NCBI GenBank assembly: GCA_016788635.1 | Contig: JAEUSU010000007.1 | Span: 159,870-223,869 of the forward strand | Reading direction: 5' to 3' | Length of the DNA: 64,000 nt | Source of the DNA: Flavobacteriales bacterium | GTDB lineage: Bacteria > Bacteroidota > Bacteroidia > Flavobacteriales_F > PHOS-HE28 | Part shown: positions 3,654-61,622 of the stretch, in pieces | Layout: every line of letters starts with the position of its first letter | Numbering within the stretch: the stretch's first letter is position 1 | Made by a program: the position numbers and the translations under genes | The notes under the pieces: model-generated | Told to the model about the DNA's origin: nothing | Database searches by the model: none | The model's input: the letters and a program-made list of their open reading frames with translations, nothing else

Positions 3654-4688
3654 ATGTCACAGATCAGTCCCCGGCAGGTAGCCCTGTACGCCGCCCTCGT
3701 GGTAGGCCTCGTACTGGCCCTGGTCCTGGTGGTGCTGCTGGTGGCCGGCACGGTGCAGGCCCCCGTGTGGGTGGCGGTGCTGCTGCCCCTGTTCGCGGCG
3801 GGCGCCACCTATGTGCTGGTGGCGGTGGGCGTGGAGCAGTTCGTGCACCGGCGCATCAAGCTCATCCACCGCATCATCCACGACCAGCGGGTGCGGCGCA
3901 CCGAGGATCATGACCAGCGTGGTGATGAGCTCAAGCGCATGGAGCAGGAGGTGCGCGACTGGGCCAGCGAGCGGCGCATGGAGATCAGCGAATTGAAGGA
4001 GCGGGAGGCCTTCCGCCGCGAGTTCATCGGCAACCTGGCGCACGAGTTGAAAACGCCCATTTTCAACATCCAGGGCTACATCCTCACCCTGCTGGAAGGG
4101 GGCCTGGAGGATGAAAAGGTGAACCGCGACTTCTTGAACCGTGCGAGCAACGGAGTGGACCGCCTGATCAAGATCGTGGACGACCTGGACATGATCACGC
4201 GGCTGGAGAGCGGGGTGCTCGCACTGGAGGTCCGCCGCATGGACCTGCGTGACCTGGTGGATGAGATGATCAAGGCCATGGAGATGCGCGCCGGCGAGCA
4301 GGGCATCACGCTGCGCAGCCTGGTACCTGATGAGACCTTCGTGCAGGGCGACCGCGACCGCCTGGCGCAGGTGTTCACCAACCTATTCGCCAATGCGATC
4401 AACTACGGCCGTCCGAATGGCTGGTGCGAGGTGCGCGTGTTCGACCTGGGCGAGCAGGTGTTGGTGGAGGTGGCGGACAACGGGATCGGCATTGCCGAGG
4501 AGCACCTGCCGCGGCTGTTCGAACGTTTCTATCGCGTGGGCAAGAGCCGCGCCCGCAATGAGGGAGGCTCCGGCCTTGGTCTGGCCATCTGCAAGCACAT
4601 CATCGATGCGCACGGCCAGAGCATCACCGCCAAGAGCACGGAGGGCGAAGGCACCACCTTCGGCTTCACCTTGCGGAAAGCCCGTTGA
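3654..4688 (+). CDS. sensor histidine kinase, PhoR-like
   Basis: It has two N-terminal TM helices, an H-box FIGNLAHELKTP, an N-box NLFANAINYG and G-boxes DNGIGI / GGSGLGLAICKHI. I chose the start at MSQISPRQV. Confidence 0.8.
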   Translation: MSQISPRQVALYAALVVGLVLALVLVVLLVAGTVQAPVWVAVLLPLFAAGATYVLVAVGVEQFVHRRIKLIHRIIHDQRVRRTEDHDQRGDELKRMEQEVRDWASERRMEISELKEREAFRREFIGNLAHELKTPIFNIQGYILTLLEGGLEDEKVNRDFLNRASNGVDRLIKIVDDLDMITRLESGVLALEVRRMDLRDLVDEMIKAMEMRAGEQGITLRSLVPDETFVQGDRDRLAQVFTNLFANAINYGRPNGWCEVRVFDLGEQVLVEVADNGIGIAEEHLPRLFERFYRVGKSRARNEGGSGLGLAICKHIIDAHGQSITAKSTEGEGTTFGFTLRKAR

Positions 4689-7600: not shown

Positions 7601-8028
7601 CGACACACGTAGATATCCAGCCAGCCATCACCGTTCACATCGGCCATGGCCACGCCGTTCCGCCAGCCCGCGCCGGCGAGGGGGCCGATGGCTTTTGCGG
7701 TGATGTCCTCGAACTTCAAGCCGCCCAGGTTGCGGTAGAGCCGGTCGGGCACCACGTTGCCGGTGAAGTAGATGTCCGGCAATCCGTCATTGTCGATGTC
7801 GCCCACGGCCACACCGCCGCCATTGTAGGCGTACACGTAGGTGAAGTAGTTCAGCTCCGGGGTCTCGTTCAGCGTGTTCGCGAAGGTGATGCCGCTCTCA
7901 TCCGCAGGAACGGCGCGCAGGAGCGGGCCCGTGGCAGCAGGTACAGTGACACGCTGCGCATCCCTGTCACATGCGATGAGGGCAAGGGCGATGAGCGGTG
8001 CGAGCGCAGGAGTGGAAGGTCTCAACAT
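4666..8028 (-). CDS. VCBS/FG-GAP repeat + UnbV_ASPIC (CRTAC1-family) lipoprotein
   Basis: Lipobox LIAC. It contains many DxDGDGxxD / DxDNDGxxD FG-GAP-type repeats, a central UnbV_ASPIC-like segment (VRGYQSCVEPVLHFGLG) and an RGRECSSQQCP motif. Confidence 0.8.
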   Translation of the reverse strand: MLRPSTPALAPLIALALIACDRDAQRVTVPAATGPLLRAVPADESGITFANTLNETPELNYFTYVYAYNGGGVAVGDIDNDGLPDIYFTGNVVPDRLYRNLGGLKFEDITAKAIGPLAGAGWRNGVAMADVNGDGWLDIYVCRSGPSRDTALTRNLLYLNNGDGSFSERAHAWGVADTTHSTQAAFVDHDGDGDLDLYVMNTPPDRLHKFSNFTAFQAVREKRAPTDRLYRNEGGHFTDVTYAADVQNFTYGLGLSVGDLDLDGRPDIYTACDFDSPDLMYMNTGTGTFKEEAQRRLRHMSNFGMGSDAADYDNDGLPDLVVLDMTAPDHLRNKTNMGSMSPERFWANVRGGYFFQYMVNTLQRNNGNGTFSEVGQLAGIARTDWSWAPLFADLDNDGWKDLLVTNGFKHDVRDNDFQRAVYDSIRSGADFFRNLDLIPSTRLHNYLFRNDGADDRGHARLTFSDSTKAWGFTEPVNSNGAAYADLDGDGDLDLVINNLDEAASLFENRADQVRPQHHHLRVEPRDGKLAALGTRVVLRDGGKVQAQELYPVRGYQSCVEPVLHFGLGTRGTVDSVEIFWPGDTYTLLRDVKAGQLLRPERKDAGPLPTPQDKPAAFADIAPRIGLDWTHREDPYNDFALEVLLPHAYSALGPHLSTADADGDGRDDLFVSGAHGQSCMLFLQKADGSFREGPSQPWKSHQYQEHLGSCFFDADGDGDMDLLLLAGGNQHDLREEGIYRQRLYLNDGRAVFRESPNAFAADLMTSAMRADAADVDGDGDMDLFIGGRITPGHYPFPPRSYLLINDGKGRFIDATKTLAPAVMGPGLVTAVRFADLDADGDPDLALAGEWMPLMVMRNDGGRFTDITEASGLAGTSGWWTALEVADVNGDGRPDLIGGNLGWNSKFQGTPEKPVHVYWADFDDNGRSDIVLAKEKDGHLLPVRGRECSSQQCPVILERFPTYAEFARADLQQIYTPEKLERALHRKAEFMRSAAFLSGADGRYTASVLPALAQTAPVNAIVVQDLDGDGHADLFIAGNNWGAEVETVRYDAGTGLLLKGDGSGRFDPVPLTRSGLFAWGEVKDVKLLRQGAARTPLLVVANTSDRLQAFAPNAPVNGLSAR

Positions 8029-8034
8029 GGATGA

Positions 8035-11000
8035 TCAGGGCAGGGTGGCCATCCCTTGGGGCATGGCGTTCAGGGTGAAGACGGAGAGCGGCGCGTTGTT
8101 GCTGGCCACGAAGAAGACGGGAGAATGGCCGCTGCGTTGCACGAGCCTCACATCGCGCACATCGTCCCAGGCGAAGAAGCCGCTGCGTGCAATGCTCCAC
8201 GGGGTGAAGTTGCCTCGGCCATCGCCTTCCAGCACCAGACCGGTGCCAGCATCGTAGCGGATGGTCTCCACCTCGGCGCCCCAGTGGTTGCCGGCCACCA
8301 CCAGGTCGGGCTTGCCGTCACCGGTCACGTCATGCACGGCGATGCCCATGATCGGGGCGGCCTGCGCGAGCATGGGCAGGTCTCGGCGCACATAACGGCC
8401 ATTGCCCTGGTTCAGCAGCACACAGCTCATCATGTTGCGCACTTCCAGGTGCAGCGCATTGCCGAGCTTTTCGGGGGTGTAGATCGTTTCCAGGCTCGCG
8501 CGCGCGAAGGCGTCATACGTGGGGAATCGGTCCAGTATCATGGGGCATTGCTGCGAGGAGCATTCGCGTCCGCGCACGGGGTAGCGGATGCCGTCCTGGT
8601 CCTTCGCCAGCACGATGTCCCCGCGCCCGTTGCCATCAAAGTCGTTCCAGTAGAGGTGCAGGGGCTTTTCCGGTGTGCCATGGAACTTGTTGTTCCAGCC
8701 GATGTTGCCGGCTACGAGGTCCTCATCGCCGTCGCCATCCAGATCGGCGGCCACCAGGTTCCACCACCAGCCTTGTGTATCGGTGAGACCGGTGGTTGTG
8801 GTGGCATCGGTGAAGCGGCCGCCCTGGTTGGTGAAAAAGGTGAGGGGCATCCATTCACCGGCGAGCACGAGATCCGGGTCACCATCGCGGTCCATGTCGG
8901 TGAAGCAGACGGCGGTGACCAGTCCGGGTTGCATGAGGCCGGGCGCGTTTTCGGCGGTGGCGTCGGTGAAGCGGCCGGTGCCATCGTTCACCAGCAGGTA
9001 GCTGCGGGGCGCGCGCGGGTACTGCCCGGGGGTTATGCGGCCGCCGATGAAGAGGTCAAGGTCGCCATCGCCGTCAATGTCGGCAGTGGCCGCGCGCAAT
9101 GCGCTGGTCTGCAACGGTGGAAGTGCTTCTTGCGCATGGGTGAAGCGTCCGGCACCTTCATTCCGATAGAGCCGTGCATGGTATTGATCGAAGTAGAGGT
9201 CCACCTCGTTGCTTCCGCTCAGCACGAGCAGGTCCTGGTCACCATCGCCATCCACATCCAGGAAGAGCGAGCCCATGTCTTCGCGGTCCTTGTGCTGCTC
9301 CCAGGGTTGGGAGGGGGCGGGTGCGAAGCGGCCGTCCGCGGTCTGGAGCAACAGTGTTCCCCGCTGGCCACGGGCACCCCCCACGTACACGTCGTCGCGG
9401 CCGTCGCCGTTGGCATCGCCCACGCCGAGCAGTGGTCCGTTGCGCGACTGGCGGTGGGGCAGCAGCACCTCCACGGCGAAGTCATCGTAGGCGTTCTCCG
9501 AGTGCCGCACGTTCGCACCAAGCGCGTCGGCTGCCTGCACGAGCAGCGGCTTGAGCGCAGGCAATGGAGGTGCGGTCGTGGCGCCGTCGCGCTTCACATC
9601 GATCACTTGTCCGGCAGCCACATCACGCAGGGTGCTCACCATTCCACCGGGCCAATGCACCTGCACCTGGTCGGCGCGCGCGTGCGGTCCGAGCCCGAAA
9701 TGCAGGATGCTTTCCACGCGGCTCTGGAAACCGCGCGTGGGTTGCAGCTCCTGCACCTGTGTACCGGCAGGTGTGGTCACGTGCACGCGGGTGAGCATGG
9801 CTTGTGCGCCATCCGATCCCTGCAGCCTAACGCGCAGCCAGTTGCCGCGTCCCTGCTGCACCGCGCGGTTCTCATACACCAAACTGGGCTCGTCAATGTT
9901 GCTGATCACCAGGTCCAGGTCGCCATCGTTGTCCAGGTCGGCGTAGGCGGCGCCGTTGCTGTTCATGGGCTGCGTGAATCCCCATGCCGCGCTGGAATCG
10001 GCAAAGGTCAGCCGCGCGAGGCCGGCGCTGTCGGCGCCCGCATTGCAGAAGAGGTAGTTGCGCAATTTGGTGGCGGGGATAAGCGCGAGGAGCTGGTTGG
10101 CGTCCATCGGTCTGCGCTCGGCGTTCAACTTTTTCAAGGTGTTGCTGAAGTCGTTGTCGCGCATGTCGCGCTTGTAGCCGTTGGTCACCAGCAGGTCCTT
10201 CCAGCCGTCGTTGTCCAGATCGGCGAAGAGGGGCGCCCAGCTCCAATCGGTCTTGCTCACGCCGGCCATCTGGCCCACCTCGCTGAAGGTGCCGTTGCCG
10301 TTGTTGCGTTGCAGGGTGTTGAACATGTACTGGTGGTGGTAGCCGGCCTCCACGGTGGCGTTGAATCGTTTGGGGTCCATGCCGCTCATGTTCTTCTTGC
10401 TGCGCACGTGGTCCGCGCTCACCATATCCAGCACCATGATGTCCATGAGGCCGTCATTGTCGTAGTCTGCCACATCGCATCCCATGCCGAAATTGCTGAT
10501 GTGCCGGGTGCGTTGCAGGACCTCATCGCGGAACCGGCCGGGTGCGTACTGCATGTACATCTTGTCCGGCTCGATGTAGTCGTTGGCCACATAGAGGTCG
10601 GGGCGGCCATCCGCGTCCAGGTCGCTGGTGGCCACGCCCAGTCCGAAGCCCATGGACCACAGGCCGGCTTCTGCGGTGATGTCTGTGAAGCGCACGCCAT
10701 CGTTCCGGTAAAGGCGGCTGCTGGGTGAGCGGCGGCTGCGGATGAGCTCCTGTACCTCCGGTATGGAGAGCGTGGTGCGGCCTTGCAGCGGTGTGTTCAG
10801 CACGAAGAGGTCCAGGTCGTTGTCTCCATCCAGGTCGAAGAAGAGGGCCTGCGTGCTGCGCGTGGTATCGGCGATGCCCAGCGCGGCGGCCTTCTCCAAA
10901 TAGGTCGGCAGCCCGTCCGGCCCGATGCCGGCGCACTCGAAGTACAAGTTCGTGCGGCGCTGCGGTTCCGGCCATCTTCCGGCACGGCACACATAAATGT

Positions 11001-11433
11001 CCAGCAGGCCGTCGTTGTTCACGTCGGCCATGGTCACCCCGGTGTGCCAGCCGTGATCGCCGGTGTGGGGCAGTACACGTTCGGTGACATCCTCGAACTT
11101 CAAGCCGCCGCGGTTCAGGTAGAGCTTGTCGCCCACGGCGCAGCCGGTGAGATAGATGTCCTGCAGTCCGTCGTTGTTCAGATCGCCAATGGCCACGCCG
11201 CCGCCATTGTACATGTATTCGTAGTTGAAGTAGTTCACGTCCTCGTTCTCCACCAGGGCGTTCACGAAGGTGATGCCGCTCTCTTCGGCGGACAGGGCGC
11301 GAAAGAGCGGGCCGGTGGTGGGAGATCCCGCTTCAGTTGGTGGGCTGTCTGAACTACAGGCGGCCATTCCAAGTGCCAGCAGCACGGACGCGCAAAGCGC
11401 TGGTCGGAAAGGGTGCGAAGTGGCGTATTTCAT
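8035..11433 (-). CDS. VCBS/FG-GAP repeat + UnbV_ASPIC (CRTAC1-family) lipoprotein, tandem paralog
   Basis: Lipobox MAAC. It is collinear with the 4666-8028 product, sharing long strings such as LQRNNGNGTFSEVGQ.AG...TDWSWAPLFADLDNDGWKDLLVTNG and RGRECSSQQCP. Confidence 0.8.
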   Translation of the reverse strand: MKYATSHPFRPALCASVLLALGMAACSSDSPPTEAGSPTTGPLFRALSAEESGITFVNALVENEDVNYFNYEYMYNGGGVAIGDLNNDGLQDIYLTGCAVGDKLYLNRGGLKFEDVTERVLPHTGDHGWHTGVTMADVNNDGLLDIYVCRAGRWPEPQRRTNLYFECAGIGPDGLPTYLEKAAALGIADTTRSTQALFFDLDGDNDLDLFVLNTPLQGRTTLSIPEVQELIRSRRSPSSRLYRNDGVRFTDITAEAGLWSMGFGLGVATSDLDADGRPDLYVANDYIEPDKMYMQYAPGRFRDEVLQRTRHISNFGMGCDVADYDNDGLMDIMVLDMVSADHVRSKKNMSGMDPKRFNATVEAGYHHQYMFNTLQRNNGNGTFSEVGQMAGVSKTDWSWAPLFADLDNDGWKDLLVTNGYKRDMRDNDFSNTLKKLNAERRPMDANQLLALIPATKLRNYLFCNAGADSAGLARLTFADSSAAWGFTQPMNSNGAAYADLDNDGDLDLVISNIDEPSLVYENRAVQQGRGNWLRVRLQGSDGAQAMLTRVHVTTPAGTQVQELQPTRGFQSRVESILHFGLGPHARADQVQVHWPGGMVSTLRDVAAGQVIDVKRDGATTAPPLPALKPLLVQAADALGANVRHSENAYDDFAVEVLLPHRQSRNGPLLGVGDANGDGRDDVYVGGARGQRGTLLLQTADGRFAPAPSQPWEQHKDREDMGSLFLDVDGDGDQDLLVLSGSNEVDLYFDQYHARLYRNEGAGRFTHAQEALPPLQTSALRAATADIDGDGDLDLFIGGRITPGQYPRAPRSYLLVNDGTGRFTDATAENAPGLMQPGLVTAVCFTDMDRDGDPDLVLAGEWMPLTFFTNQGGRFTDATTTTGLTDTQGWWWNLVAADLDGDGDEDLVAGNIGWNNKFHGTPEKPLHLYWNDFDGNGRGDIVLAKDQDGIRYPVRGRECSSQQCPMILDRFPTYDAFARASLETIYTPEKLGNALHLEVRNMMSCVLLNQGNGRYVRRDLPMLAQAAPIMGIAVHDVTGDGKPDLVVAGNHWGAEVETIRYDAGTGLVLEGDGRGNFTPWSIARSGFFAWDDVRDVRLVQRSGHSPVFFVASNNAPLSVFTLNAMPQGMATLP

Positions 11434-11464
11434 CCACGCGCAAAGTAAACCGCCAGCGCATGCT

Positions 11465-12691
11465 TCAGCGCACCAGTTCGTCGAAGAAGGTGATGCCGTT
11501 CTCGTTGTTCACGCTGATGCGCGGGATGTCATCGTAGATGCTCACCTTGCCGGTGACGCACACGCGCTTGTCCACCAGGTAGGTCTCGGGGTCGTAGCTG
11601 AAGTTGGGGCCGTTGTACTCCCAGATGGTGGCATAGAAATCCTGATGCGGATGCTGGCGATCGAAGTTGAGGTAGATGGCTTTCGCCTTCGCGGTCTTGC
11701 GGGAGCTCACCACGGTGCCGCACACGGTGACGGTCTTGCCCACGTGGTACTTGGCCTGCACGGTGTTGAATAGACCTTTGGGCAGCGGGGCCTTCAGCGG
11801 CTCCACCTCCTTGAAGAAGGGGTCGCCGGGGCCGTACCAGCTCTTGGGGTCGCGCATGGACTCGATGCGGGCCTCGATCTCATCGTCCAGTGCGTGAAAG
11901 AAGTCGAGGCCGGTGAGCTTCTCCACACTGTCAATGGGCACCGCGTAGCTGATCGTGGGGTTCTCATTCGCGCCGTTGCGCATCACGAAGGCGATGCCCT
12001 TCTTCTCCGGACCGTCCAGGTCGGCGACCACCTTGTAGAAGAGGCGCGGGATGCTGACCTCGTTCACGTGACCGGGGTTGTTCAATTTGGGCAGATCGGT
12101 TTCCAGCACGGGCCCGGTGACCACGTAGAGCCGGCGTCCGGTGTAGGTCACCGATCGGCGCACCCAATCCTCCAGGTCGGCCCAGCTTTCGCGGTTGAGC
12201 TCAGGCAGCTGCGGGCTCACGTTGCTGTAGTAATAGGTGGGATAGAGGGCCTCGTAAGTCCAGCGCATGTCGGCGCTGGGCACCAGATGCCCGCGGTCGT
12301 ACCCGCTGTTCCAATAGTCGGCGGTCACGGCCGTGCCGGTGGGTACCAGGGGGTCCACTTTGAAACTGTCGATGCGGGCCAGCCCACCGGTGGCCACTTC
12401 GGGTGTTACGATGTGTGCCGTCCATAGGGCCTGCTCATGCGCTTCACTGTATACCAATGCGTGTGCGGCATGTTGGACCACCACTTCACCATCACGCAAG
12501 GCCGGCCATCCCCAGCGCTTCAGGTCATCACGTAGCACGTCCATCTTCAACCGGTCGATGCGCGTCTGCACCTCGCTGCGCTGCCTTTCCAACTCACGGG
12601 CCTGGTCGAGCAATTTTTGCAGCTCCTCATGTTGGCTGCGCGTGGAAAGGACAAGAAAGGAGGCGGCCAGCAGGTGCCAGGTGCGATGCAT
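11465..12691 (-). CDS. secreted DNA/RNA non-specific endonuclease (NUC/EndoG family) with C-terminal OB-like domain
   Basis: It has a signal peptide, a DRGHLVPSADM active-site motif followed by NVSPQ, and a beta-rich C-terminal extension. Confidence 0.75.
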   Translation of the reverse strand: MHRTWHLLAASFLVLSTRSQHEELQKLLDQARELERQRSEVQTRIDRLKMDVLRDDLKRWGWPALRDGEVVVQHAAHALVYSEAHEQALWTAHIVTPEVATGGLARIDSFKVDPLVPTGTAVTADYWNSGYDRGHLVPSADMRWTYEALYPTYYYSNVSPQLPELNRESWADLEDWVRRSVTYTGRRLYVVTGPVLETDLPKLNNPGHVNEVSIPRLFYKVVADLDGPEKKGIAFVMRNGANENPTISYAVPIDSVEKLTGLDFFHALDDEIEARIESMRDPKSWYGPGDPFFKEVEPLKAPLPKGLFNTVQAKYHVGKTVTVCGTVVSSRKTAKAKAIYLNFDRQHPHQDFYATIWEYNGPNFSYDPETYLVDKRVCVTGKVSIYDDIPRISVNNENGITFFDELVR

Positions 12692-14673: not shown

Positions 14674-15033
14674 ATGTCCAAACGCCAGGTCATCAACGGA
14701 GCCATCCAACAGCGGGACTTCTTCGCCGACGTGATGGACGTGGTGCGACAGATCCCCCAAGGCCGGGTGACGAGCTATGGTGCCATCGCGAAATACCTGG
14801 GCGCGGCGCGCAGCAGCCGCATCGTGGGCTATTGCATGAACAACAGCCACGTGGTGAAGCCCCCCGTTCCCGCTCACCGCGTGGTGAACCGCAATGGCCT
14901 GCTCACCGGCAAGCATCACTTCCCCGCCCCTGAACGCATGCAGGAACTGCTGGAGGCGGAAGGGGTGAAGGTGAAGAATGACCAGGTAATGGACTTCGCC
15001 CGCCGATTCTGGGACCCGGCGCTGGAGTTGTAG
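14674..15033 (+). CDS. alkyltransferase-like (ATL) protein, MGMT DNA-binding domain without the acceptor cysteine
   Basis: It has the MGMT helix-turn-helix (GRVTSYGAIAKYLG), but the active-site PCHRV is PAHRV here. Confidence 0.75.
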   Translation: MSKRQVINGAIQQRDFFADVMDVVRQIPQGRVTSYGAIAKYLGAARSSRIVGYCMNNSHVVKPPVPAHRVVNRNGLLTGKHHFPAPERMQELLEAEGVKVKNDQVMDFARRFWDPALEL

Positions 15034-15039
15034 GCCACC

Positions 15040-15068
15040 CGCTGCGCCATGTTCGCAGCGCTTTCGTT
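15040..15068 (+). terminator. possible terminator hairpin after the ATL gene
   Basis: A 7-bp stem (cgctgcg / cgcagcg) with a 7-nt loop is followed by CTTTCGTT. Confidence 0.35.
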
Positions 15069-15074
15069 ACCTTC

Positions 15075-15545
15075 ATGCCCGAAGCCTTCGCCATGACGAT
15101 CGAGATCATCCTGGACGATGCCGATGTGACCATCGATGTGCATCCCGGCCAGCGCTTGGTGCGCCTGGCATGGAAGCGCGCCGTGCCCGGTCCGGTGTAT
15201 CGGGAGGTGCTCCTCACCCTGCTTGAAGTGGTTCGGCAACGCAACCTGAAGCTCTGGTTGAGCGATGGCCGCAGGATGGGCCCCATTCTTTATGACGACC
15301 AGGTGTGGACCATGAAGGAGTACACCCCGCAGGTGCTTCAGGCGGGTTTGGAGCGCATCGCCATCGTGAACAGCGAGGACGTGATGAACCAGCTGGCCGT
15401 GGACCGCATGGTGAACGCCACCCCTGCGGACGCGCCCTATGAGATCGCCTTCTTCCAGGATCCCGCCATCGGGCAGTTGTGGTTGATGGATCCCCGGCGC
15501 TCCGGGCCCAAGGTGGAGACTCCCAAGGAGGAACAGCGCTCCTGA
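15075..15545 (+). CDS. hypothetical protein
   Basis: This 156-aa ORF has coding-like composition. I recognise no confident family. Confidence 0.45.
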   Translation: MPEAFAMTIEIILDDADVTIDVHPGQRLVRLAWKRAVPGPVYREVLLTLLEVVRQRNLKLWLSDGRRMGPILYDDQVWTMKEYTPQVLQAGLERIAIVNSEDVMNQLAVDRMVNATPADAPYEIAFFQDPAIGQLWLMDPRRSGPKVETPKEEQRS

Positions 15546-30542: not shown

Positions 30543-30884
30543 ATGCCCACTTCCGACATCCGCCTCTCCGTGCAGCTTGATGAGAACCGCGTGCCCGAGC
30601 GCATCCACTGGGAGGCAGAGGACGGCGGCCACCGCCGCACGAGCAAGGCGGTGCTGCTGAGCCTGTGGGACGAGCAGGAGCAGAACACCCTGCGCATCGA
30701 CCTGTGGACGAAGGAGATGACCGTGGAAGAGATGAAGGCCTTCTTCCACCAGAACATCCTTACGCTGGCGGACACCTTCGAACGCGCCACCGGCGAGGGC
30801 CGCATGGCCGCACAGATGCGCGACTTCGCCGCCTACTTCGCCGAGCACATGCTGCCGGAATTGAAGCAGCCGCCGACAAGCTGA
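30543..30884 (+). CDS. gldC: gliding motility protein GldC
   Basis: SDIRLSVQLDENRVPERIHWEAEDGG...LSLWDEQEQNTLRIDLWTKEMTVEEMKAFFHQ matches my recollection of the GldC family closely. The last ~14 codons lie in direct repeat DR-L. Confidence 0.85.
   Translation: MPTSDIRLSVQLDENRVPERIHWEAEDGGHRRTSKAVLLSLWDEQEQNTLRIDLWTKEMTVEEMKAFFHQNILTLADTFERATGEGRMAAQMRDFAAYFAEHMLPELKQPPTS
30831..30871 (+). repeat. direct repeat DR-L (inside the 3' end of gldC)
   Basis: gcctacttcgccgagcacatgctgccggaattgaagcagcc matches 37757-37797 at 38/41 positions, and the first 29 nt are identical. Confidence 0.9.
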
Positions 30885-30965
30885 GCAACTGGGGTCGGTG
30901 ATCCTTATGGAGTAGTGCTTATTCCGAGGCACACTTCAACAGCCAGCCATCACCGTTCCAAGGCA

Positions 30966-32465
30966 TCATTCCTTGATGAATTTCCCCGCCCAGGGCGTGC
31001 CAGAGCGGTCCGTGTAGTGCAGGATGTAGAGCCCAGGCGGGTGCGGCCGCACGTCCAGCTCGATCTCAGTGCTTTGGCCGCCGGGTTGGAAGGTGCGCAC
31101 CTCGCGGCCGGTGGCATCCAGCAGGCGGAAGGTGCCGTTGGGCGGTTTGGCGGAGCGGAAGCTGATGAAGAGCCTGTCCGCGGCGGGGTTGGGATAGAGC
31201 AGGATGTTGAGCTTGGGCTCGCCCGGCAGGCGCGGCTGCTCGGCGATGTGGTCGTACAACTGGCAGCCGGGCACCAGGCAGCCGAAGCTGTCCACGCGGA
31301 TCACCCACAGATCTTGTTGGCCATCGTTGCATGAACCCGTGGCCACGATGCTGCCGTCGGGATCTTCAATGGAGTGCCGCAGCCAATGCACGCTGAAGCT
31401 GCCTTGGAGGGGTGGATGCTGGTAGGTGCGCATCCAGAGACTGTCGCCGTTGGACGCGAACTTCATCAGTACACCCATATAACGATAAGGAGGACCTTGC
31501 TCTTGGTAGATACCCGAAGCAACAAAAGCACCATCTGTCAACTCGACGACCGAGGAGAATGCGGCCTCCACTGCGGGTGCTCCGAACTGCTTCTCCCAAA
31601 GAAGGTTCCCCGATTGATCGATCCGAGCAGCATACAACTTCGTGGCGGTGGCGGAACCCGATTGATATGTAGCATAAGCGCCAACTACAAGAAGATCACC
31701 GCTCGTCGTTGATATCAAATTGGCCCAACCATCTCGATAAGGACCGCCAAGCAACAATTGCCATTGCTCCACGCCCAAGCTGTCAGTTTGGATCACAAGT
31801 CCATCGAAATCTTGGGTCGATACCCAGCGATGGCCTCCAAGAATGAAACCATGGTCGGGTGACCTGGCGATGGTATAGCCTTCCTCACGCAGAACATTCC
31901 CGAATTCATGAACCCACACGATGTTACCCATGGCGTCTTGTTTGGACAGAAAGAGCTGACCAGATTGGCTTCCATGCCACACGGAGCCACAGCCAAAGAA
32001 CGCACCATTGAATTCCCTTACAGAAGCGCCGATCGATTCATCGTTTGCGTTAGGGAAGATCTCGACACTCCATAGGCTATCAAGTCCAGGTCCGATCCTC
32101 CAGGAGCGAGATGATAACCTTGAACCATCGTCAGTAGGTCCCAAGAGGATAAGTCCGCTATCAGTGGTAAGGGCAGGGCCATTCGCCCAACCTGGGAGAC
32201 ATGTCAAACTGTCTCTTCCCCAAGAGCGCAATTCCTGCGCATCCCCGTTCGCAGAGATCTCCGTGAGGCATACACGAACGAATGGATTCAACGTGTCGAT
32301 GCCTGCCTGAACGATGAGGTACCCCGAATCCAGCTGACACACGAAGAAACCCATCTCATCATGCCCTTGCGCACCATGAAAGTCGTTGCGGGTGCTGAAC
32401 TGCTGCCCCTCGCAGACCAGCCAGGAGCAGGCAGCCAAGATCGCTATGCAGGAGCGGACCATCAT
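30966..32465 (-). CDS. secreted protein of unknown function with T9SS C-terminal sorting domain
   Basis: It has a signal peptide, a repetitive beta-rich body and a CTD (LNILLYPNPAADRLFISF...GLYILHYTD). The 5' two-thirds has markedly lower GC than its surroundings. Confidence 0.7.
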   Translation of the reverse strand: MMVRSCIAILAACSWLVCEGQQFSTRNDFHGAQGHDEMGFFVCQLDSGYLIVQAGIDTLNPFVRVCLTEISANGDAQELRSWGRDSLTCLPGWANGPALTTDSGLILLGPTDDGSRLSSRSWRIGPGLDSLWSVEIFPNANDESIGASVREFNGAFFGCGSVWHGSQSGQLFLSKQDAMGNIVWVHEFGNVLREEGYTIARSPDHGFILGGHRWVSTQDFDGLVIQTDSLGVEQWQLLLGGPYRDGWANLISTTSGDLLVVGAYATYQSGSATATKLYAARIDQSGNLLWEKQFGAPAVEAAFSSVVELTDGAFVASGIYQEQGPPYRYMGVLMKFASNGDSLWMRTYQHPPLQGSFSVHWLRHSIEDPDGSIVATGSCNDGQQDLWVIRVDSFGCLVPGCQLYDHIAEQPRLPGEPKLNILLYPNPAADRLFISFRSAKPPNGTFRLLDATGREVRTFQPGGQSTEIELDVRPHPPGLYILHYTDRSGTPWAGKFIKE

Positions 32466-32468
32466 CGC

Positions 32469-35400
32469 TCAGCGAACGACCGTTACGGAAACTCCATCCA
32501 GTGAACCACGCCTGCCGAACAGCACCAAACGATAGAGCCCCGGGGCGTAAGCCCCCATGTCCAACTCGGAAATGAACGGACCGGAATACACGGGCGATCG
32601 CTGCAACTCCACCCCGTGCATGTTGTAGACGCCGACATATCCTCTGAATTCGCCCATTGGCAGGAAGGTCACGATGTTCAACCGGCCGTTGGTGGGGTTG
32701 GGCTGGGCGCGGATCAACCCCTTCTTCGACTTGGGCGCAGAAGCGAGTGACTCGACCATGCTTCGCTCCTCGCCCGGCAGGATCACCGGCTCCTCGAAGC
32801 CCAGGCCCAGGTGGCGGGCCAGCAGGGCGCGGGCCGTAGCGTGGCCGGGCAGGCTGTCGTTCTCCGCGATGGCCAACAGGGTCTGGTGCGCCTGTTGCAC
32901 CAGCGTATCCGCGTTCTCCGGGTCCTGGGCGAGGGCCAGCACCACGCTCCATACGTCCGCCTCCTCATCGGCCAGGCCGTGTTCGTCCGGTGTTGCCACC
33001 CATGCTTCCGCCTCGGTCCATTCCCCGCGCGCGATCAGCAGGGCCAGCCGTTCCACCGGTGCGGCCGGCAGGTCCTCGTATTCCATCATGTACACCAGAC
33101 TGTCCAGCGGAACGCTCGCCGTGTCCTGCAGCATCAGGCGCAGATAGTCGTGCCGGGCGCGCTCGGCGTCCAGCCGTAGGCTGCCCAGTTCCGCCTCGAT
33201 CCAGCGCCGCCAGGGAATGTTGCCGGTCTGCCCGTCCTGCACCAGCTCGATGAAGGACTCGTCCAGCTGGCTGCGCTCCACGGCCAGCAGCACGTCCGGG
33301 CTCAGGGGGCTGTTGGCCAGCAGGGCCTCGGTGAGGTGCCAGGGATCCATGGCCGCGTCGCGCTGCACGCAGCGGATCAGTATGCCGTCCGTCACCTTGG
33401 GCGCGGCGGCCAGCAGGGCGTTGCGCAGGGTGAAGGAACTGATGCCGGGGTCCAAAACAAGCCCCAACAGGTAGTCTGTGTCGCCGCCGTCCACCTCGCC
33501 GTTGTACACCGCCTTCAATTGGGTCAAGGGGCCTATGGCGCCTGAGAAGGTCAGGAACACACCGGCTGGTGCCATTTCGTTGCTCGTATGCTTCGGACAG
33601 GAAGAACCCGTTCCGTCACCAGCTTGGTATGAGAACGTTGTAGATTGAAGCACTACATGTGGAGGCAGTGTGGAACAGTATGGAGTGGTAAATTGATCGG
33701 TGTGGTGGAAATATGTAATGCCACTTGAAGAAGCATTGTTATGGTAAATGTCCGATTGATCCGCTCCTGGAGGACATTCGGGATAGAATCGATTACCAGC
33801 TGGTATGGATGTTGACCCTTGGTTCGCCGCAACGGCCGCTGTGCTCTTGGTCACAGCGGCGTCATAGAAGCAATCATCGGAGCCATCGGCATTCCCATAC
33901 TGGTTGCAACGGAATTGCAGGCCGAAACCCTGGGGACTTCCGATAACACGGTTATTGCCCTGCATGATGCTGCCCGCATACAGCTTGTTGAACTTGTTGC
34001 GGTAGAATTCATTGGGAGTGAGGGTGCTGCCTTTCACGAGCAGGCCCACGTTGCCCACGGTGTTCACACCCGTGAACACATTGTCCTCCACTTCGTAGCC
34101 CTCGCAGCCGTTCAGGTACACGCCGTAGGGCATGGGCCAGGGCAGTATGCTGGCGTCCAGCGGCCAGGAGCCGTCGCCGGTGGGGATGGTGAAGGTGTTT
34201 CCGGTGATCTCGGCATTGAACACGCCGGTGAGTACCACGCCGCGGTCGTTGTTGGAGAAGGTGTTGTTGCGGATCCAACAGGGCTTCAGGCCGGTGGCAT
34301 CACTGGCGCGAATACCGATGGTGAGCTGGTGGAAGGTGCTGCCCTTGGCGGTGAAGCGGGAATCGAGGGAGATGATGCCCGCCGGACGTTGTTTGGCATA
34401 ACCAGCGTTCAGCGTTTCATCCAGGGATAGGGTGCAGTTCACGAAGTTCACACCGCTCACGCCATCCAGTCGTGCCATTTCGGAATAGGCCATGGCACCT
34501 TCATGTGCGGTGGCGGTCTTGGTGAATACCGTGTTGTTGAACTGGCACCGGTTGGCCTGTTCGCTTCCGTTGTGGATGTTCTGGTAGGGCTTCAGCCATA
34601 CCGCTCGGCCGCAGTTGCGGAAGGTGCCGCCCGTGGTGGACGTGATGATGCCGCCGGAGGTCCCGGGCACGAAATGGCCTTGGGCATCGGTACCAAAGGC
34701 GCGAGCACCCACCAGCGCGTGCTCGATGGTGCCCCCGTTCATCAGCCGCAACACGCCCTGGTTGGTGGCGGGTATCTGGGATTGGCCGGCCACGCCCCAC
34801 ACGTCCACCCCCCACCATGCCTGTTCGCACCGGTTGGTAAGCGTGCCGCCATCCATCACCACGGCCGCTCCGGGGTCCACCACCAGCCGGCCACCTTTCG
34901 GGAAGTAGGCGGTGCCGGTAATGGTGAGCGTGGCGCCGCCGAGCACACGCAGGTTGCCATGCACGAACTCATCCCCGCTCCAGGTGGTGTTCACAGCGAT
35001 CTGTTGGGTGTGGGCATAGGTTTCTGTCATAGGTAACAGATCGGCCTGCCATACACCCCGTCCGAAGGTGGCTGCCATCAGTTTGCCTGTGCAGTTGTTG
35101 ATCCGCAGTTCAACTACGCGGATATTGGGTACGTCGCCGTATCGCGCCCAACACGACATGGCGTTGTCCTTGAAGTACACACCTGCATCCGTTGCGATGT
35201 ACAGCCGGTCAGCGGTGCCGGATTGGTACACGATGTTGTTCACCGGAAGATCGGCAAGGGTGCCCAGAGGATCGTCGTTCGACCAGGTGCTTCCGCCATC
35301 CTCCGAGCGGTAGACCTTCACCAACGGATCATACCCTGTAAATGACAGCCAGACCCGATCCGCGTTCCGTGGGTCTACAGCTATGCCAGTGATGATGGGC

Positions 35401-37610
35401 TTCGCAATGGTGCCCACACTCATGTCCGGTAATCCCGAGGTGATGTCGAAGAACCGATCCACGTTATAGTCTCCGTCGTTCCCGCCGGTAATGGACTTCA
35501 TGAGCTTGGGCTCCAGATTCCAGGTCTCAAGACCGGCATTGTCCACGCCACCCTGGGTCACATAGATCACTTGGGGGTCGCTCTCGGCGATCGCTACCTC
35601 CTTGAGTTGTCTCTTCCACATAGGGGTGAGCGAGGGATCCTTGCTCACATCGGATTGCAACTTCCAAATATCCGTTGGTTGATCACCTGTGCTGGGTACG
35701 TCCTTGATCCGCTCATAGAGTTCGGTGAAGCACATCCAGGGACCATTCAAAGCGGGATGCTCCACAACTTGGAATGTCCTGGAAAGCATCACGACTTCTG
35801 GTGGCGCTTCGACCTCATCCACTGGTCTGTAAGGGTTCTCCTCGTGGTTGGCGTTCGCTGGGTAGTCATGGCGCTTCAGAGACCCCTGATTCACAATGAA
35901 CGCGCAGTTCCTGGAGCGTTGATCGAGAACTTGTGCACCGTAGCCATCGCCACCCCCCACGTTAGTCCATACGCGTTGTCCTCCTACCCGTCTGTGTACA
36001 TCAGTCCCCGTATCCTGGCTACCAATGATGACGACGTCTTTTTCAATCCCTGAAGTACGAAAACGCCAGATCGTCTTCACTGCCAGTCCATTGTTGCGGA
36101 ACTGCCAATCGGTGGTCTGTGCCACGCTGCCGGAGATCGTCTTTGCGCTGATCCCTCCATCATGCCCGGCGAACAATCTGGGGTTGGCCACATTGGGCTG
36201 GAACGTGAGCGCGTGAATGTCCGCATGGCAGTTATAGCCAGCGGAGACGCCATACGCTGATTCATCGGTGAACCCGGGTCCCACAGTGATATCCCTGTCA
36301 CCTTTCACTTTGGTGTACCCGAAGAAGACCATTTTGGCATCCACGGGAGACACGGCGATAGGCATCCATGTCGGGGAGATCTGATTGAGAGCATCAGGGC
36401 TGTACTCCTGTGTGTTCGAATTGAAATTGAGGGGTGTGCTTTGAGAGTGAAGCAAGGACCATGATGCCCCGTCGAAGCGATAGATTTGGCAAACCACATT
36501 ACCAGGATAATTCACATTCGATTGATCGGCACATACGAGGTAGGCATACACGTAAGCTGGCTCGGCAGGAGTAACGGCCAGATTGATGCGATCCACTTCA
36601 AAGCCGGTCAATGCGTCCAGGTCCAAACCCGTACCCGGTCCCGTCATACTCTGCCACGTCACCCCTTCATCATCCGACATGTAGATGTCCGTGCCACCGG
36701 CGTAGAGGGTGGATGCGTCGCCAGGTTTGAACTCCAGGCCGCGTATATCCAGCGAGGTCATGGCAATGCCACTGCTTGTGTTCTGCCATGTTGGATCGGG
36801 GGCCAGAGCATTCGAACATTTGTATACACCCAGTGAGGTGGCCACGTAGACCTTGTTCCCATCTGTGGGATCGGATAAGATCCTTCTGGTCGTTCCTCCA
36901 TCGTTGAAATCGCTCAGAAAGCCATCATTGATCGGATGCCATGTAGCTCCCCGGTCCAAGGACCGGTAGATCCCGATCGTATAGATCGGATTGATGAGCG
37001 CCGTATTCGACTCCCATTGAGGGAATAGTCCACCATCTGCATGGCCGGTGGAAATGAACAGATGGTCGGAGTTGAGATGGTCCACTGCTACATCCGCCAC
37101 GCAGGTCAAGGGTAAATGATCGGTGTTCACCACTGCCCAATTCGTGCCGTCGTCATCACTACGCCATAAACCGCCGAATGAGGAAGTCGCATAGACGGTG
37201 GTATTCGTGGTGCCATTGTACTGGGGGTCGAAGGTTATGCGGTGGATCTGGCCTACACCCCTTGCCCCGGTTGCCAAAGACCCCTCCGGCTGGCCCACAG
37301 GTCCGATCATCTCCCATTCAACATTTGCGTCTGGACAAGAGCCGGAAGCAGAGTGGTGAGAAATGGCGTAGGCGGTAATCGCCTGTGCCGCAACGCGAAA
37401 ATCACCATGAGGCCACAACCGGCTACCCCATTCAAATGCGGCTCTGTCGTACATTTTGGCATGACCGCTGCGCGGAACGGGATCCACGATCGGATGCAAC
37501 GCATAGTACGCACCCAAGCGGTCGTGAAATGGCATTGCGGGTGGAGTTTGGGCCTCTGCGATCAGGTTTCCGAAGCCAAACGCCAGCATGAGGATGCAGA
37601 GCTTGAGCAT
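32469..37610 (-). CDS. giant secreted protein (~1,713 aa): BNR/Asp-box beta-propeller region, parallel beta-helix region, helical region, T9SS C-terminal sorting domain
   Basis: The signal peptide is MLKLCILMLAFGFGNLIAEAQ. Repeated SxDxGxTW-type boxes are present (SDDDGTNW, SLDRGATW, SDDEGVTW, SEDGGSTW). An NNTFSNNDRGVVL...ITGNTF beta-helix signature follows. The CTD is IRAQPNPTNGRLNIV...GLYRLVLF. Confidence 0.75.
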   Translation of the reverse strand: MLKLCILMLAFGFGNLIAEAQTPPAMPFHDRLGAYYALHPIVDPVPRSGHAKMYDRAAFEWGSRLWPHGDFRVAAQAITAYAISHHSASGSCPDANVEWEMIGPVGQPEGSLATGARGVGQIHRITFDPQYNGTTNTTVYATSSFGGLWRSDDDGTNWAVVNTDHLPLTCVADVAVDHLNSDHLFISTGHADGGLFPQWESNTALINPIYTIGIYRSLDRGATWHPINDGFLSDFNDGGTTRRILSDPTDGNKVYVATSLGVYKCSNALAPDPTWQNTSSGIAMTSLDIRGLEFKPGDASTLYAGGTDIYMSDDEGVTWQSMTGPGTGLDLDALTGFEVDRINLAVTPAEPAYVYAYLVCADQSNVNYPGNVVCQIYRFDGASWSLLHSQSTPLNFNSNTQEYSPDALNQISPTWMPIAVSPVDAKMVFFGYTKVKGDRDITVGPGFTDESAYGVSAGYNCHADIHALTFQPNVANPRLFAGHDGGISAKTISGSVAQTTDWQFRNNGLAVKTIWRFRTSGIEKDVVIIGSQDTGTDVHRRVGGQRVWTNVGGGDGYGAQVLDQRSRNCAFIVNQGSLKRHDYPANANHEENPYRPVDEVEAPPEVVMLSRTFQVVEHPALNGPWMCFTELYERIKDVPSTGDQPTDIWKLQSDVSKDPSLTPMWKRQLKEVAIAESDPQVIYVTQGGVDNAGLETWNLEPKLMKSITGGNDGDYNVDRFFDITSGLPDMSVGTIAKPIITGIAVDPRNADRVWLSFTGYDPLVKVYRSEDGGSTWSNDDPLGTLADLPVNNIVYQSGTADRLYIATDAGVYFKDNAMSCWARYGDVPNIRVVELRINNCTGKLMAATFGRGVWQADLLPMTETYAHTQQIAVNTTWSGDEFVHGNLRVLGGATLTITGTAYFPKGGRLVVDPGAAVVMDGGTLTNRCEQAWWGVDVWGVAGQSQIPATNQGVLRLMNGGTIEHALVGARAFGTDAQGHFVPGTSGGIITSTTGGTFRNCGRAVWLKPYQNIHNGSEQANRCQFNNTVFTKTATAHEGAMAYSEMARLDGVSGVNFVNCTLSLDETLNAGYAKQRPAGIISLDSRFTAKGSTFHQLTIGIRASDATGLKPCWIRNNTFSNNDRGVVLTGVFNAEITGNTFTIPTGDGSWPLDASILPWPMPYGVYLNGCEGYEVEDNVFTGVNTVGNVGLLVKGSTLTPNEFYRNKFNKLYAGSIMQGNNRVIGSPQGFGLQFRCNQYGNADGSDDCFYDAAVTKSTAAVAANQGSTSIPAGNRFYPECPPGADQSDIYHNNASSSGITYFHHTDQFTTPYCSTLPPHVVLQSTTFSYQAGDGTGSSCPKHTSNEMAPAGVFLTFSGAIGPLTQLKAVYNGEVDGGDTDYLLGLVLDPGISSFTLRNALLAAAPKVTDGILIRCVQRDAAMDPWHLTEALLANSPLSPDVLLAVERSQLDESFIELVQDGQTGNIPWRRWIEAELGSLRLDAERARHDYLRLMLQDTASVPLDSLVYMMEYEDLPAAPVERLALLIARGEWTEAEAWVATPDEHGLADEEADVWSVVLALAQDPENADTLVQQAHQTLLAIAENDSLPGHATARALLARHLGLGFEEPVILPGEERSMVESLASAPKSKKGLIRAQPNPTNGRLNIVTFLPMGEFRGYVGVYNMHGVELQRSPVYSGPFISELDMGAYAPGLYRLVLFGRRGSLDGVSVTVVR

Positions 37611-37756
37611 GCTGATGGGGGGTATCAATTGAACCGACAGCCTCCACCAACCCACGCCACAGATGCCAATATAGCACTGCTCTTGGTGAATGGTAACGCT
37701 CAACCCCGCGATGCCGCCCGCTCAGCGTGGTTCAGTGACGAGTAGTGCACAAAGGC

Positions 37757-37801
37757 GCCTACTTCGCCGAGCACATGCTGCCGGAGCTGAAGAAGCCTTA
37801 G
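37757..37801 (+). repeat. direct repeat DR-R = orphan copy of the gldC 3' end (AYFAEHMLPELKKP-stop)
   Basis: gcctacttcgccgagcacatgctgccggagctgaagaagcc is followed by ttag. In the gldC frame it encodes an alternative C-terminus and a TAG stop at 37799-37801, 10 nt from the convergent engB stop. Confidence 0.85.
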
Positions 37802-37811
37802 GTCGGGCGCG

Positions 37812-38435
37812 CTACGCGGAACCCCATCCGGCATTCACCTCGGCGATGAAGGCCAGCAGTTCCTCCCGCCCTTTGCCCGTCTCCACGCTGCTCAGGAACA
37901 TCATCGGCACTTCCTTCCAGGTCTTCTTCAGCGTGCGGCGGAAAAGCGCCACGTGACTTTCCACCTTGGGCATGGAGAGCTTGTCCGTTTTGGTGAACAC
38001 GATCACGAAGGGGATGCCCTCGGTGCCGAGCCAGTGGATCATGTCCAGGTCGTTCTGCTGCGGCTCCAGCCGGCTGTCCACCAGCAGGAACACGCATTGC
38101 AGGTTCTCCCTCCCGCGCAGGTAGGCGCGGATCATGCGTTCCCACGCGGCGCGTTCGTCCTTGCTGATCTTGGCGAAGCCGTAGCCGGGCAGGTCGGCCA
38201 GCAGCCAGGGTCGCGCATCGGTGAGCGTGCCTTCCACGCGGAAGTGCTCCACGTTGCGCGTGCGGCCCGGCGTGTTGCTCACGCGCGCCAGCTTGTTCAC
38301 CCCGCAGAGCATGTTGATCAACGAGCTCTTGCCCACGTTGCTGCGGCCGATGAAGGCGTACTCGGGAAGCGTGGGCTTGGGCCAGTGCTTCGCCTCGCGT
38401 CCGCTGCCGAGGTGTTGGGCTTTGAGGGTTTTCAT
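37812..38435 (-). CDS. engB: ribosome biogenesis GTP-binding protein YihA/YsxC (EngB)
   Basis: It has G1 GRSNVGKSSLIN, G3 DLPGYG and G4 TKTDK. I chose the start at MKTLKAQ (cat 38433-38435). The longer ORF in the track only reads through the heptamer array. Confidence 0.85.
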   Translation of the reverse strand: MKTLKAQHLGSGREAKHWPKPTLPEYAFIGRSNVGKSSLINMLCGVNKLARVSNTPGRTRNVEHFRVEGTLTDARPWLLADLPGYGFAKISKDERAAWERMIRAYLRGRENLQCVFLLVDSRLEPQQNDLDMIHWLGTEGIPFVIVFTKTDKLSMPKVESHVALFRRTLKKTWKEVPMMFLSSVETGKGREELLAFIAEVNAGWGSA

Positions 38436-38438
38436 GGG

Positions 38439-38669
38439 GAGTGACGAGTGGCGAGTACAGAGTGACGAGTACAGAGTGGCGAGTACAGAGTGGCGAGTAC
38501 AGAGTGACGAGTACAGAGTGGCGAGTACAGAGTGGCGAGTGGCGAGTACAGAGTGGCGAGTACAGAGTGACGAGTACAGAGTGGGGAGTGACGAGTACAG
38601 AGTGGCGAGTACAGAGTGGCGAGTGGCGAGTACAGAGTGGCGAGTGATGAGTTGCGAGTGGCGAGTGGG
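38439..38669. repeat. array of 33 head-to-tail heptanucleotide repeats (consensus GAGTNNN on + strand)
   Basis: The split was done by hand and gives GAGTACA x12, GAGTGGC x12, GAGTGAC x5, GAGTGGG x2, GAGTGAT x1 and GAGTTGC x1. There are no register breaks. The array ends 3 nt from the engB start codon. Confidence 0.95.
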
Positions 38670-61247: not shown

Positions 61248-61622
61248 TCAGTAGTTGTCGTCGCGGTAGCCGCCGCGATCGCTACGTTCGCTACGCTCGC
61301 TGCGGAAGCCGCCACGGTCGTTGCCGCCGCGGTAGCCACCACGGTCGTTGCCGCCGCGGAAACCGCCGCGGTCGCCTTCCGGACGGGGGCGGGCCTCGTT
61401 CACCACGAGGTCACGGCCGTGGAAGTTCTTGCCGTTCGTTCCCTCAATGGCGGAACGGCCGGAGTTGTCATCGGACATTTCAACGAAGCCGAATCCACGG
61501 CTGCGGTTGGTGGCTTTGTCCATGATGATCTTGGCGGAGGTCACTTCACCGAACTGTTCGAAGAGTTCGCGGAGTTCCTGGTCCCGCACTGAGTAAGCCA
61601 CGTTGGCGACGTAAATGTTCAT
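61248..61622 (-). CDS. RNA-binding protein with RRM domain and C-terminal RGG-repeat tail
   Basis: It has RNP2 (MNIYVANV) and RNP1 (RGFGFVEM). The tail is DRGGFRGGNDRGGYRGGNDRGGFR. The start was trimmed to MNIYV. Confidence 0.85.
   Translation of the reverse strand: MNIYVANVAYSVRDQELRELFEQFGEVTSAKIIMDKATNRSRGFGFVEMSDDNSGRSAIEGTNGKNFHGRDLVVNEARPRPEGDRGGFRGGNDRGGYRGGNDRGGFRSERSERSDRGGYRDDNY

Follow-up and report, generated by a model that had tools for sequence, protein, structure and literature searches.

A 6.9-kb insert lacking a recombinase at the duplicated 3' end of gldC in a Flavobacteriales genome, and similar inserts at gene ends in related genomes

In the 64,000 nucleotides of a Flavobacteriales bacterium analysed here (assembly GCA_016788635.1, contig JAEUSU010000007.1, positions 159,870 to 223,869 of the forward strand; the whole stretch is referred to as the window), the gene gldC and its convergent neighbour engB are separated by a 6.9-kb segment which holds just two genes, both on the minus strand, and a second copy of the end of gldC lies on the far side of this segment, next to engB. 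The locus raises the question of how a segment that encodes no recombinase could come to lie at the very end of a conserved gene and leave that gene end duplicated. The comparisons presented below show that the segment is an insertion and that eight further inserts lacking a recombinase are found at gene ends in related genomes, and they suggest that the working gldC may have received its present end from the incoming DNA. The features of the locus are as follows.

30543-30884, plus strand: gldC, the working gene, 113 amino acids (PF19937 GldC-like, E 3.4e-36)
30830-30871, plus strand: left direct repeat, attL-like; its last 12 nt (GAATTGAAGCAGCC region) appear non-native and encode ELKQ
30872-30884, plus strand: putative replacement gldC end from the insert, consisting of the codons P-T-S and a TGA stop; relatives stop after ELKK or ELKKP
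30885-30965, strand not applicable: left inner spacer, with the 9-mer GAGTAGTGC at 30910-30918 and a 19-nt match (30940-30958) to an FG-GAP gene at 7618-7636
30966-32465, minus strand: cargo gene 1, 499 amino acids, predicted secreted protein with a signal-peptide-like N-terminus, a beta-propeller and a sorting domain of the type IX secretion system (T9SS; PF18962, E 1.6e-8)
32469-37610, minus strand: cargo gene 2, 1713 amino acids, predicted secreted protein with a sortilin/BNR-like N-terminal part and a NosD/right-handed beta-helix (PF05048, PF13229)
37611-37755, strand not applicable: right inner spacer, upstream of cargo gene 2, with the 9-mer at 37740-37748 and an 11-mer (37734-37744) in common with a tandem array near engB
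37756-37801, plus strand: right direct repeat, attR-like, with the native stop codon; orphaned original gldC 3' end, AYFAEHMLPELKKP and stop
37812-38435, minus strand: engB, 207 amino acids, ancestral convergent neighbour of gldC (PF01926; 70-79% identical to the gldC-adjacent EngB of relatives)

The direct repeat is 42 nt long (copies at 30830-30871 and 37756-37797), with 39 of 42 positions identical and no mismatch in the first 30. A first-pass annotation, made from the letters of the window, had described it as 41 nt with 38 matches and 29 identical leading bases; the repeat is real, and each of these figures had to be raised by one. Its 29-mer core occurs exactly twice in the window (0.00 occurrences expected from 100 shuffles). 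The left edge is sharp, with similarity beginning at the same base in both copies as first described (the preceding bases differ, with C at 30829 and G at 37755, and the sequences upstream of the copies are unrelated), while the right edge lies four bases ahead of the native gldC stop codon. All 3 mismatches fall within the last 12 nt, a clustering with a probability of about 0.02 by our own estimate, and consist of two synonymous changes and one K to Q substitution. Translated in the frame of gldC, the distal copy reads AYFAEHMLPELKKP and then reaches a TAG stop at 37799-37801; this is indeed the complete alternative C-terminus that had been proposed. The working gene ends in AYFAEHMLPELKQPPTS and its stop, and its last 18 codons are made up of the left repeat and the insert-derived tail. 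Its identity as gldC is supported by the PF19937 match, by gldB (PF25594) directly upstream and by 88-89% identity to the nearest GldC proteins, which are 109-110 amino acids long. Unusual GldC lengths were also considered as a signal in their own right and set aside, being mostly N-terminal start-codon artefacts, with a naturally variable tail after FAEHML(P).

The two ends differ in how well they fit the family. The tail of the working gene, ELKQPPTS, appears foreign, whereas the ELKKP of the distal copy corresponds to a native GldC end: relatives usually stop after ELKK, and ELKKP is found in three of them (L029, P0030 and P0103; these and the following codes designate the loci compared). 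An ELKQ ending is present in L017 and L035. The DNA of the distal copy, GAGCTGAAGAAGCC, likewise agrees with that of relatives, and the 30-nt identical stretch is found verbatim in several of them. Because both its tail and its DNA agree with those of relatives, the right copy is, as judged from these alignments, the stranded native gldC end and not part of an engB terminator, the possibility that the first-pass annotation had named as fatal to its proposal; no terminator-like hairpin was found overlapping the right repeat. The two copies appear to be of separate origins, and the differing tail of the proximal copy continues directly into insert DNA, in keeping with the earlier suggestion that a replacement end was brought in. 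Between the distal TAG and the stop codon of engB (37812-37814, minus strand) there are 10 nt, which confirms the distance at which gldC would terminate if the intervening DNA were removed.

The empty site that such an event implies was looked for in 80 fetched genome loci encoding GldC relatives, in which the gldC-engB junction was scored by tblastn with an EngB query. In 57 of the 80, gldC and engB are direct convergent neighbours separated by 11-255 nt, with no insert. The junction is empty in all close relatives with enough downstream sequence, apart from L017, in which engB is not next to gldC; this locus was considered as a possible element and rejected, as the genes downstream are housekeeping ones (TonB, GroEL, sigma-54 activator, MiaB) and point to a rearrangement. 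The cargo pair described here was absent from the gldC-engB junction of all fetched loci outside this strain, which disposes of the other case named as fatal by the first-pass annotation, namely this pair at the site in all relatives with no empty allele. The composition of the insert also sets it apart from its surroundings, with a GC content of 0.58 compared to 0.66 in the flanks and a third-position GC content (GC3) of 0.65-0.71 compared to 0.81-0.92 in the flanking genes. Five independent SRA assemblies give an identical structure, base for base, and an assembly chimera is therefore excluded. The 6.9-kb segment is thus an insertion. A possible homology between the inner flanks of the insert and the gldC-engB spacers of relatives was also considered, and it came down to chance-level words.

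The two genes fill the insert almost completely, leaving spacers of 81 nt (30885-30965, from the gldC stop to the stop of the 499-aa gene), 3 nt and 145 nt. Both proteins have hydrophobic N-termini, as read directly from the sequence. Residues 171-393 of the 499-aa protein match the CylK beta-propeller (E 4e-12), and its gene has a GC3 of 0.65. The first-pass annotation had taken both proteins to be T9SS-secreted; the PF18962 match of the 499-aa protein is significant and places the insert among carriers of T9SS cargo, while the C-terminal domain of the 1713-aa protein gives a sub-threshold match (E 0.025, 15 bits), most of its homologues having the domain. The 1713-aa gene is called at that length in the independent assemblies too, and a sigma-70-like promoter match lies upstream of it on the minus strand (37696 to 37668). 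A search for cargo homologues, which had been expected to identify donor lineages, yielded no donor: the nearest homologues are 55% identical for the 499-aa protein and 37% for the 1713-aa protein. As had been claimed, the insert is devoid of recognisable mobility functions. Pfam found neither a recombinase domain in the two genes nor a transposase in the insert, ARAGORN found no tRNA, and no Rfam family was found. Terminal inverted repeats are also lacking, the longest inverted word between the inner ends being 7 nt (p = 0.47). No recombinase family was found among the larger open reading frames (ORFs) of the window that were scanned, which are housekeeping in nature (dcw cluster, korAB, FG-GAP proteins, others). 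The 9-mer GAGTAGTGC at both inner ends had already been judged too short to matter, and is rejected as an arm site or terminal repeat (shuffle p about 0.05; no counterpart in the eight other inserts).

Two minor features of the 499-aa gene were also noted. The spacer after its stop contains a 19-nt exact match (30940-30958 and 7618-7636) to an FG-GAP repeat gene, which reads NGDGW... on the minus strand and may be a remnant of FG-GAP/VCBS coding sequence imported with the insert. The gene is annotated full-length in L003 only, and as C-terminal fragments of 170-201 amino acids in L001, L002 and L004, the DNA being identical; its low-GC 5' part (52-57% GC, around 31200-32700) probably misleads gene callers.

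The event at gldC is not isolated. Beyond paralogous or repetitive coding matches, a self-comparison of all fetched loci (1.6 Mb) gave only a few further repeat pairs, each of which brackets a toxin-antitoxin-like pair, and homologues of both cargo genes were found paired in other genomes, in differing contexts. Together these amount to eight further recombinase-less inserts, each lying between duplicated copies (28-107 nt) of the end of a conserved gene; four hold toxin-antitoxin pairs and four hold T9SS modules that are homologous or related to this cargo. For the T9SS modules, a homologous one in L093 (4241-12461) is flanked by a perfect repeat (28/28) of the metF 3' end, and another in L086 (2520-9592; L086-L089) by two copies, 107 nt long and 92.5% identical, of an inositol-phosphatase gene's 5' end. 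In L094, the L086 site is taken up by a module that has diverged strongly (37-40% amino acid identity) and lacks a repeat, between flanking genes that are 70-95% identical. In L096 (9839-19255), a related module with a TonB-dependent receptor lies between two 49-nt copies (84% identical) of the 3' end of a Mg-chelatase-family gene.

The closest parallel by site is found in L064 (10292-11340), a distant, low-GC Bacteroidetes metagenome-assembled genome, in which two identical 39-nt copies of the 3' end of gldC enclose an insert of ~970 nt with ORFs of 154 and 99 amino acids, the latter with a weak PIN-domain match; four relatives (L058, L060, L062 and L068) have the empty site. Its repeat starts at the codon homologous to Y98 in the window, where the repeat begins 4 nt earlier. 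The remaining three have duplications of 51-73 nt. In L014 (2830-3821), the korB 3' end brackets a ParE pair, and L009 provides the empty site; the same ParE cassette lies directly after korB, with no remnant, in L010, L016 and L024, and the region downstream of korB holds differing cassettes among relatives. In L036 (958-1760), the duplicated 3' end of an MGMT-like gene (71 nt, one mismatch) brackets a HepT/MNT pair with tight cassette edges (4 nt and 23 nt), and the site is empty in L020, L040, L048 and L063 as well as in the window itself (15030-15443). A second ParE pair, in L024 (1446-2198), is bracketed by the 3' end of a cytochrome-c protein gene. Overall, the nine inserts occupy eight different sites in seven different genes, with cassettes of 0.6-9 kb. 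None of the nine encodes a recombinase, and GC is below that of the flanks in all nine. Six of the inserts are clear 3'-end cases, and in each of these the end of the repeat falls between -4 and +3 nt relative to the stop codon. The inserts have no subterminal motif in common, whether direct or inverted.

A few other matches were examined and rejected. The L090 module lies between two signal-peptidase genes that are old paralogues (35% amino acid identity) rather than a duplication. L089, a 6,996-nt contig with identical 30-nt ends, could have been taken for a circle; it starts and ends at repeat positions 70 and 99, which are de Bruijn branch points of the linear structure. Other pairs from the self-comparison were motifs of the Mur-ligase P-loop and of sorting-domain paralogues, and the short pairs within L027, L029, L037 and L058 were treated as paralogous or repetitive coding matches, not being individually inspected.

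The gldC-engB junction holds other genes elsewhere. In several more distant lineages (L051, L053, L060, L062, L064 and L075) it contains a ~600-aa gene, shown in L064 to encode a PKD/CHU_C T9SS protein, and in L047 (1514-2677) the gene of a 387-aa membrane protein. These occupants have no surviving repeat. Since it is occupied by other genes in several lineages, the junction is a recurrent insertion site.

How the DNA entered is less certain than that it did. The reading we prefer, and to which we would give slightly less than an even chance, is a Campbell-type insertion by a single crossover of a cassette carrying its own copy of the gldC end, with the recombination enzyme acting in trans. 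The 6.9 kb would be a horizontally acquired operon of two genes for T9SS-type secreted proteins with its own promoter-like site, and the target would have been the ancestral junction at which gldC and engB converge. The incoming DNA, presumably a circle, would have carried a sequence resembling the end of gldC, and one reciprocal crossover between this sequence and the final ~45 nt of gldC, falling within the 30 identical bases, would have given the working gene the incoming end ELKQPPTS and left the native ELKKP stranded beside engB. The structure observed is exactly what a single crossover with a circular molecule would produce. As the cassette encodes no recombinase, the enzyme would have to be supplied in trans, either as a site-specific recombinase encoded elsewhere or as host recombination acting on short homology. 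That the intermediate was circular, that there was one crossover and which enzyme acted are what we infer from the structure. In favour of site specificity are the coincident boundary in both gldC events and the tight edges of the L036 cassette.

Several points weigh against the single-crossover reading. The separate origins of the repeat copies are read from 3 mismatches only. The reading predicts an empty site in which GACTTCGC is joined to CGCCTACTTC and runs on to GAGCTGAAGAAGCCTTAGGTCGGG, and a circle junction in which GTGCACAAAGG is joined to CGCCTACTTC and runs on to GGAATTGAAGCAGCCGCCGACAAGC. An exact look-up of the predicted ELKKP GldC ending among ~15 billion proteins did not find a same-species empty site, and a metagenome scan gave 0 matches to the empty-site DNA and 0 to a circular or attP/attR junction. 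A cognate integrase-bearing element at gldC was not found in the 80 genomes or in IMG/VR, where a DNA pattern scan and a protein-guided scan gave 0 phages or proviruses with a gldC end; downstream of gldC in more distant genomes, there was no integrase among the matches listed (the 25 Pfam families with most matches, 55 ORFs), a weak negative. Conserved subterminal motifs or arm-type repeats shared among the inserts were not found either. The near-coincidence of the left boundary in the gldC events has n = 2 and a chance of ~3-10% by our own estimate. The absence of an integrase from nine of nine inserts, at eight sites in seven genes, is awkward for dedicated trans-acting site-specific recombinases, and homologies of 28-50 nt are short for RecA.

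The alternative that survives best is homology-facilitated illegitimate recombination, a process described in the natural transformation of Acinetobacter baylyi and Streptococcus pneumoniae; we consider it a serious rival, albeit an unlikely one. Here, the incoming DNA would be linear and come from a related donor in which the cargo already lay downstream of gldC. The donor gldC would have acted as the anchor, and the far end would have been joined illegitimately, some dozens of bases short of the gldC stop. This would have been the only viable place, given that engB starts 10 nt away, and the join would have duplicated the gene end. The insert shares with that process foreign DNA, one-sided homology, an anchor in a conserved gene and the lack of a dedicated recombinase, which fits all nine inserts. 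The left tail resembles an orthologous GldC tail, its differences being two synonymous changes and K to Q, with ELKQ also seen in L017 and L035, and the 30-nt identical stretch is found verbatim in several relatives. A donor-type arrangement, i.e. a cassette without remnant, exists at korB in L010, L016 and L024, and the diverged module of L094 lies at the L086 site without a repeat. A repeat ending at the stop codon would also be expected, since homology between donor and recipient ends there. However, no donor was found, the nearest cargo homologues among 5.8 billion proteins being those at 55% and 37% identity. To our knowledge, the products described for this process show deletion of recipient DNA and not a short duplication of the anchor end, random illegitimate junctions do not predict a near-identical left boundary in two gldC events, and the very tight edges of the L036 cassette are not predicted.

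A different origin would be an element that once had its own integrase. Tyrosine-recombinase elements are known at the ends of genes, as in ICESt1 and ICESt3 (fda 3' end), SXT (prfC 5' end) and many islands targeting tRNA genes. As here, they insert into a conserved gene at its final or initial codons and supply a replacement end, the repeat corresponding to the segment of identity between attP and attB; unlike them, the insert has no integrase, excisionase or any mobility gene between its repeats. With no recombinase in the insert or in the window ORFs scanned, it does not qualify as an integrase-encoding element, be it an integrative and conjugative element (ICE), an integrative and mobilizable element (IME), a prophage or a genomic island. 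It could instead be a true cis-mobilizable element (CIME), i.e. a decayed ICE, which we regard as improbable. Integration at a 3' end with an element-supplied replacement end is classical for tyrosine-recombinase elements. CIMEs are decay products of ICEs or IMEs found at sites that are used by cognate integrase-bearing elements, as at the fda 3' end of Streptococcus thermophilus (PMC5704250, PMC6323972), and the architecture of the insert fits the published definition (PMC5704250, PMC6323972): it has no integration or transfer genes, so that any mobility would depend on outside functions, and it is bracketed by a 42-nt repeat of which the right copy is the native gldC end. By these features it looks functionally like a CIME-type islet flanked by att sites at the 3' end of a protein gene, and its membership of this class is putative. 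It differs in that no cognate element or integrase was found in the 80 genomes or IMG/VR, nor an intact element at gldC, and in that eight sites in seven genes hold tiny cassettes (0.6-9 kb), some with perfect repeats. No recombinase remnant is left and the two genes fill the insert, the spacers being 81, 3 and 145 nt. It is unlikely that all nine inserts decayed independently, losing every mobility gene and keeping nothing but cargo, above all the two with perfect repeats, which are probably recent.

Less probable still is a long target-site duplication, in which the cassette was ligated into a staggered break or acquired by template switching, the 42-nt overhang was filled in and the mismatches arose later. 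The perfect repeats of L064 and L093 and the near-perfect one of L036 would suit such an event, as would the variable repeat length (28-107 nt) and the lack of element-specific end motifs. Against it, the mismatches are clustered, and the remnant, although unconstrained, is pristine and consensus-like while the working copy carries all three changes. Moreover, all six 3'-end repeats terminate at the stop codon (-4 to +3 nt), which random breaks do not predict. A simple staggered-cut duplication is disfavoured on account of this consensus-like remnant, the changed working copy and the stop-codon boundary. Finally, the notion that there was no insertion, the arrangement being ancestral and lost in all relatives or an assembly chimera, can draw on the missing same-species empty site and is effectively refuted by the in-frame gldC end stranded beside engB, which proves former adjacency, by a gldC-engB junction kept in 57 of 80 genomes across wide divergence, by the five assemblies agreeing base for base and by an insert composition atypical for the genome.

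The other systems with which the insert can be compared fit it less well. It is not an insertion sequence or transposon, there being no transposase and the repeat being 42 nt long and imperfect, with lengths of 28-107 nt rather than a fixed one in the comparable inserts. Integron cassettes are similarly small, sometimes promoterless, often toxin-antitoxin pairs and moved by a recombinase in trans. The insert nevertheless lacks an attC-like imperfect palindrome, an intI/attI platform and an array, its flanking repeats are host gene ends, and there is no significant inverted repeat at its ends and no integrase among the window ORFs scanned. The minimal mobile elements of Neisseria are cassettes swapped between conserved flanking genes by homologous recombination. 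They resemble the present inserts in being recombinase-less, at fixed sites and with different cargo per strain, as at gldC-engB and downstream of korB, but their exchange relies on homology at both flanks and does not leave a direct repeat behind.

Taken by itself, the gldC case is a tidy and moderately interesting footprint. What is new here is the recurrence across the clade of recombinase-less cassettes anchored at stop codons, which deserves follow-up. One may speculate, rather tentatively, that they reflect a general and so far undescribed route by which toxin-antitoxin pairs and T9SS cargo operons are moved in Flavobacteriales, and in Bacteroidota more widely: each cassette would attach through its copy of the terminal 30-100 nt of a conserved host gene, insertion would take place exactly at the stop codon, and the cassette, having no recombinase of its own, would depend on a trans-acting enzyme or a short-homology pathway. 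If so, the window insert would be one of nine in the ~1.6 Mb sampled, i.e. several per genome. The entry of accessory genes without recognisable mobile elements is poorly understood, and toxin-antitoxin pairs and secreted-protein genes are prime examples of it. The footprint is clean and datable, consisting of a gene-end duplication that stops at the stop codon, with empty sites in relatives. Should a trans-acting recombinase or a short-homology pathway be responsible, it would explain a share of the genome plasticity of an abundant wastewater and freshwater clade, and the footprint would offer a simple means of recognising such events in whatever genome they occur. Should homology-facilitated illegitimate recombination be responsible, the inserts would show in nature a process that has been seen mostly in transformation experiments in the laboratory.

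Some further features of the window were observed. The spacer that runs from the engB start to the stop of an abhydrolase gene, ~60-100 nt long in most relatives, is filled here by a tandem array (38439-38668) with a periodicity of 7/14/21 nt and about 14 copies of the consensus GAGTGGCGAGTACA. An 11-mer of the array, AGTGACGAGTA, recurs at 37734-37744, inside the right end of the insert, and heptad-like runs (GAGTNNN) lie directly after gldC in L015, L023, L026, L040 and L045. At 61326-61418, ARAGORN reports a 93-nt tRNA-Phe, which overlaps a 27-nt tandem repeat (61298-61374) and is probably a false positive. The genes at 4669-8034 and 8038-11508 are tandem paralogues encoding FG-GAP/ASPIC(UnbV) proteins of ~1,100 amino acids, and have blocks in common that are 74-91% identical in DNA and lie ~3,369 nt apart.

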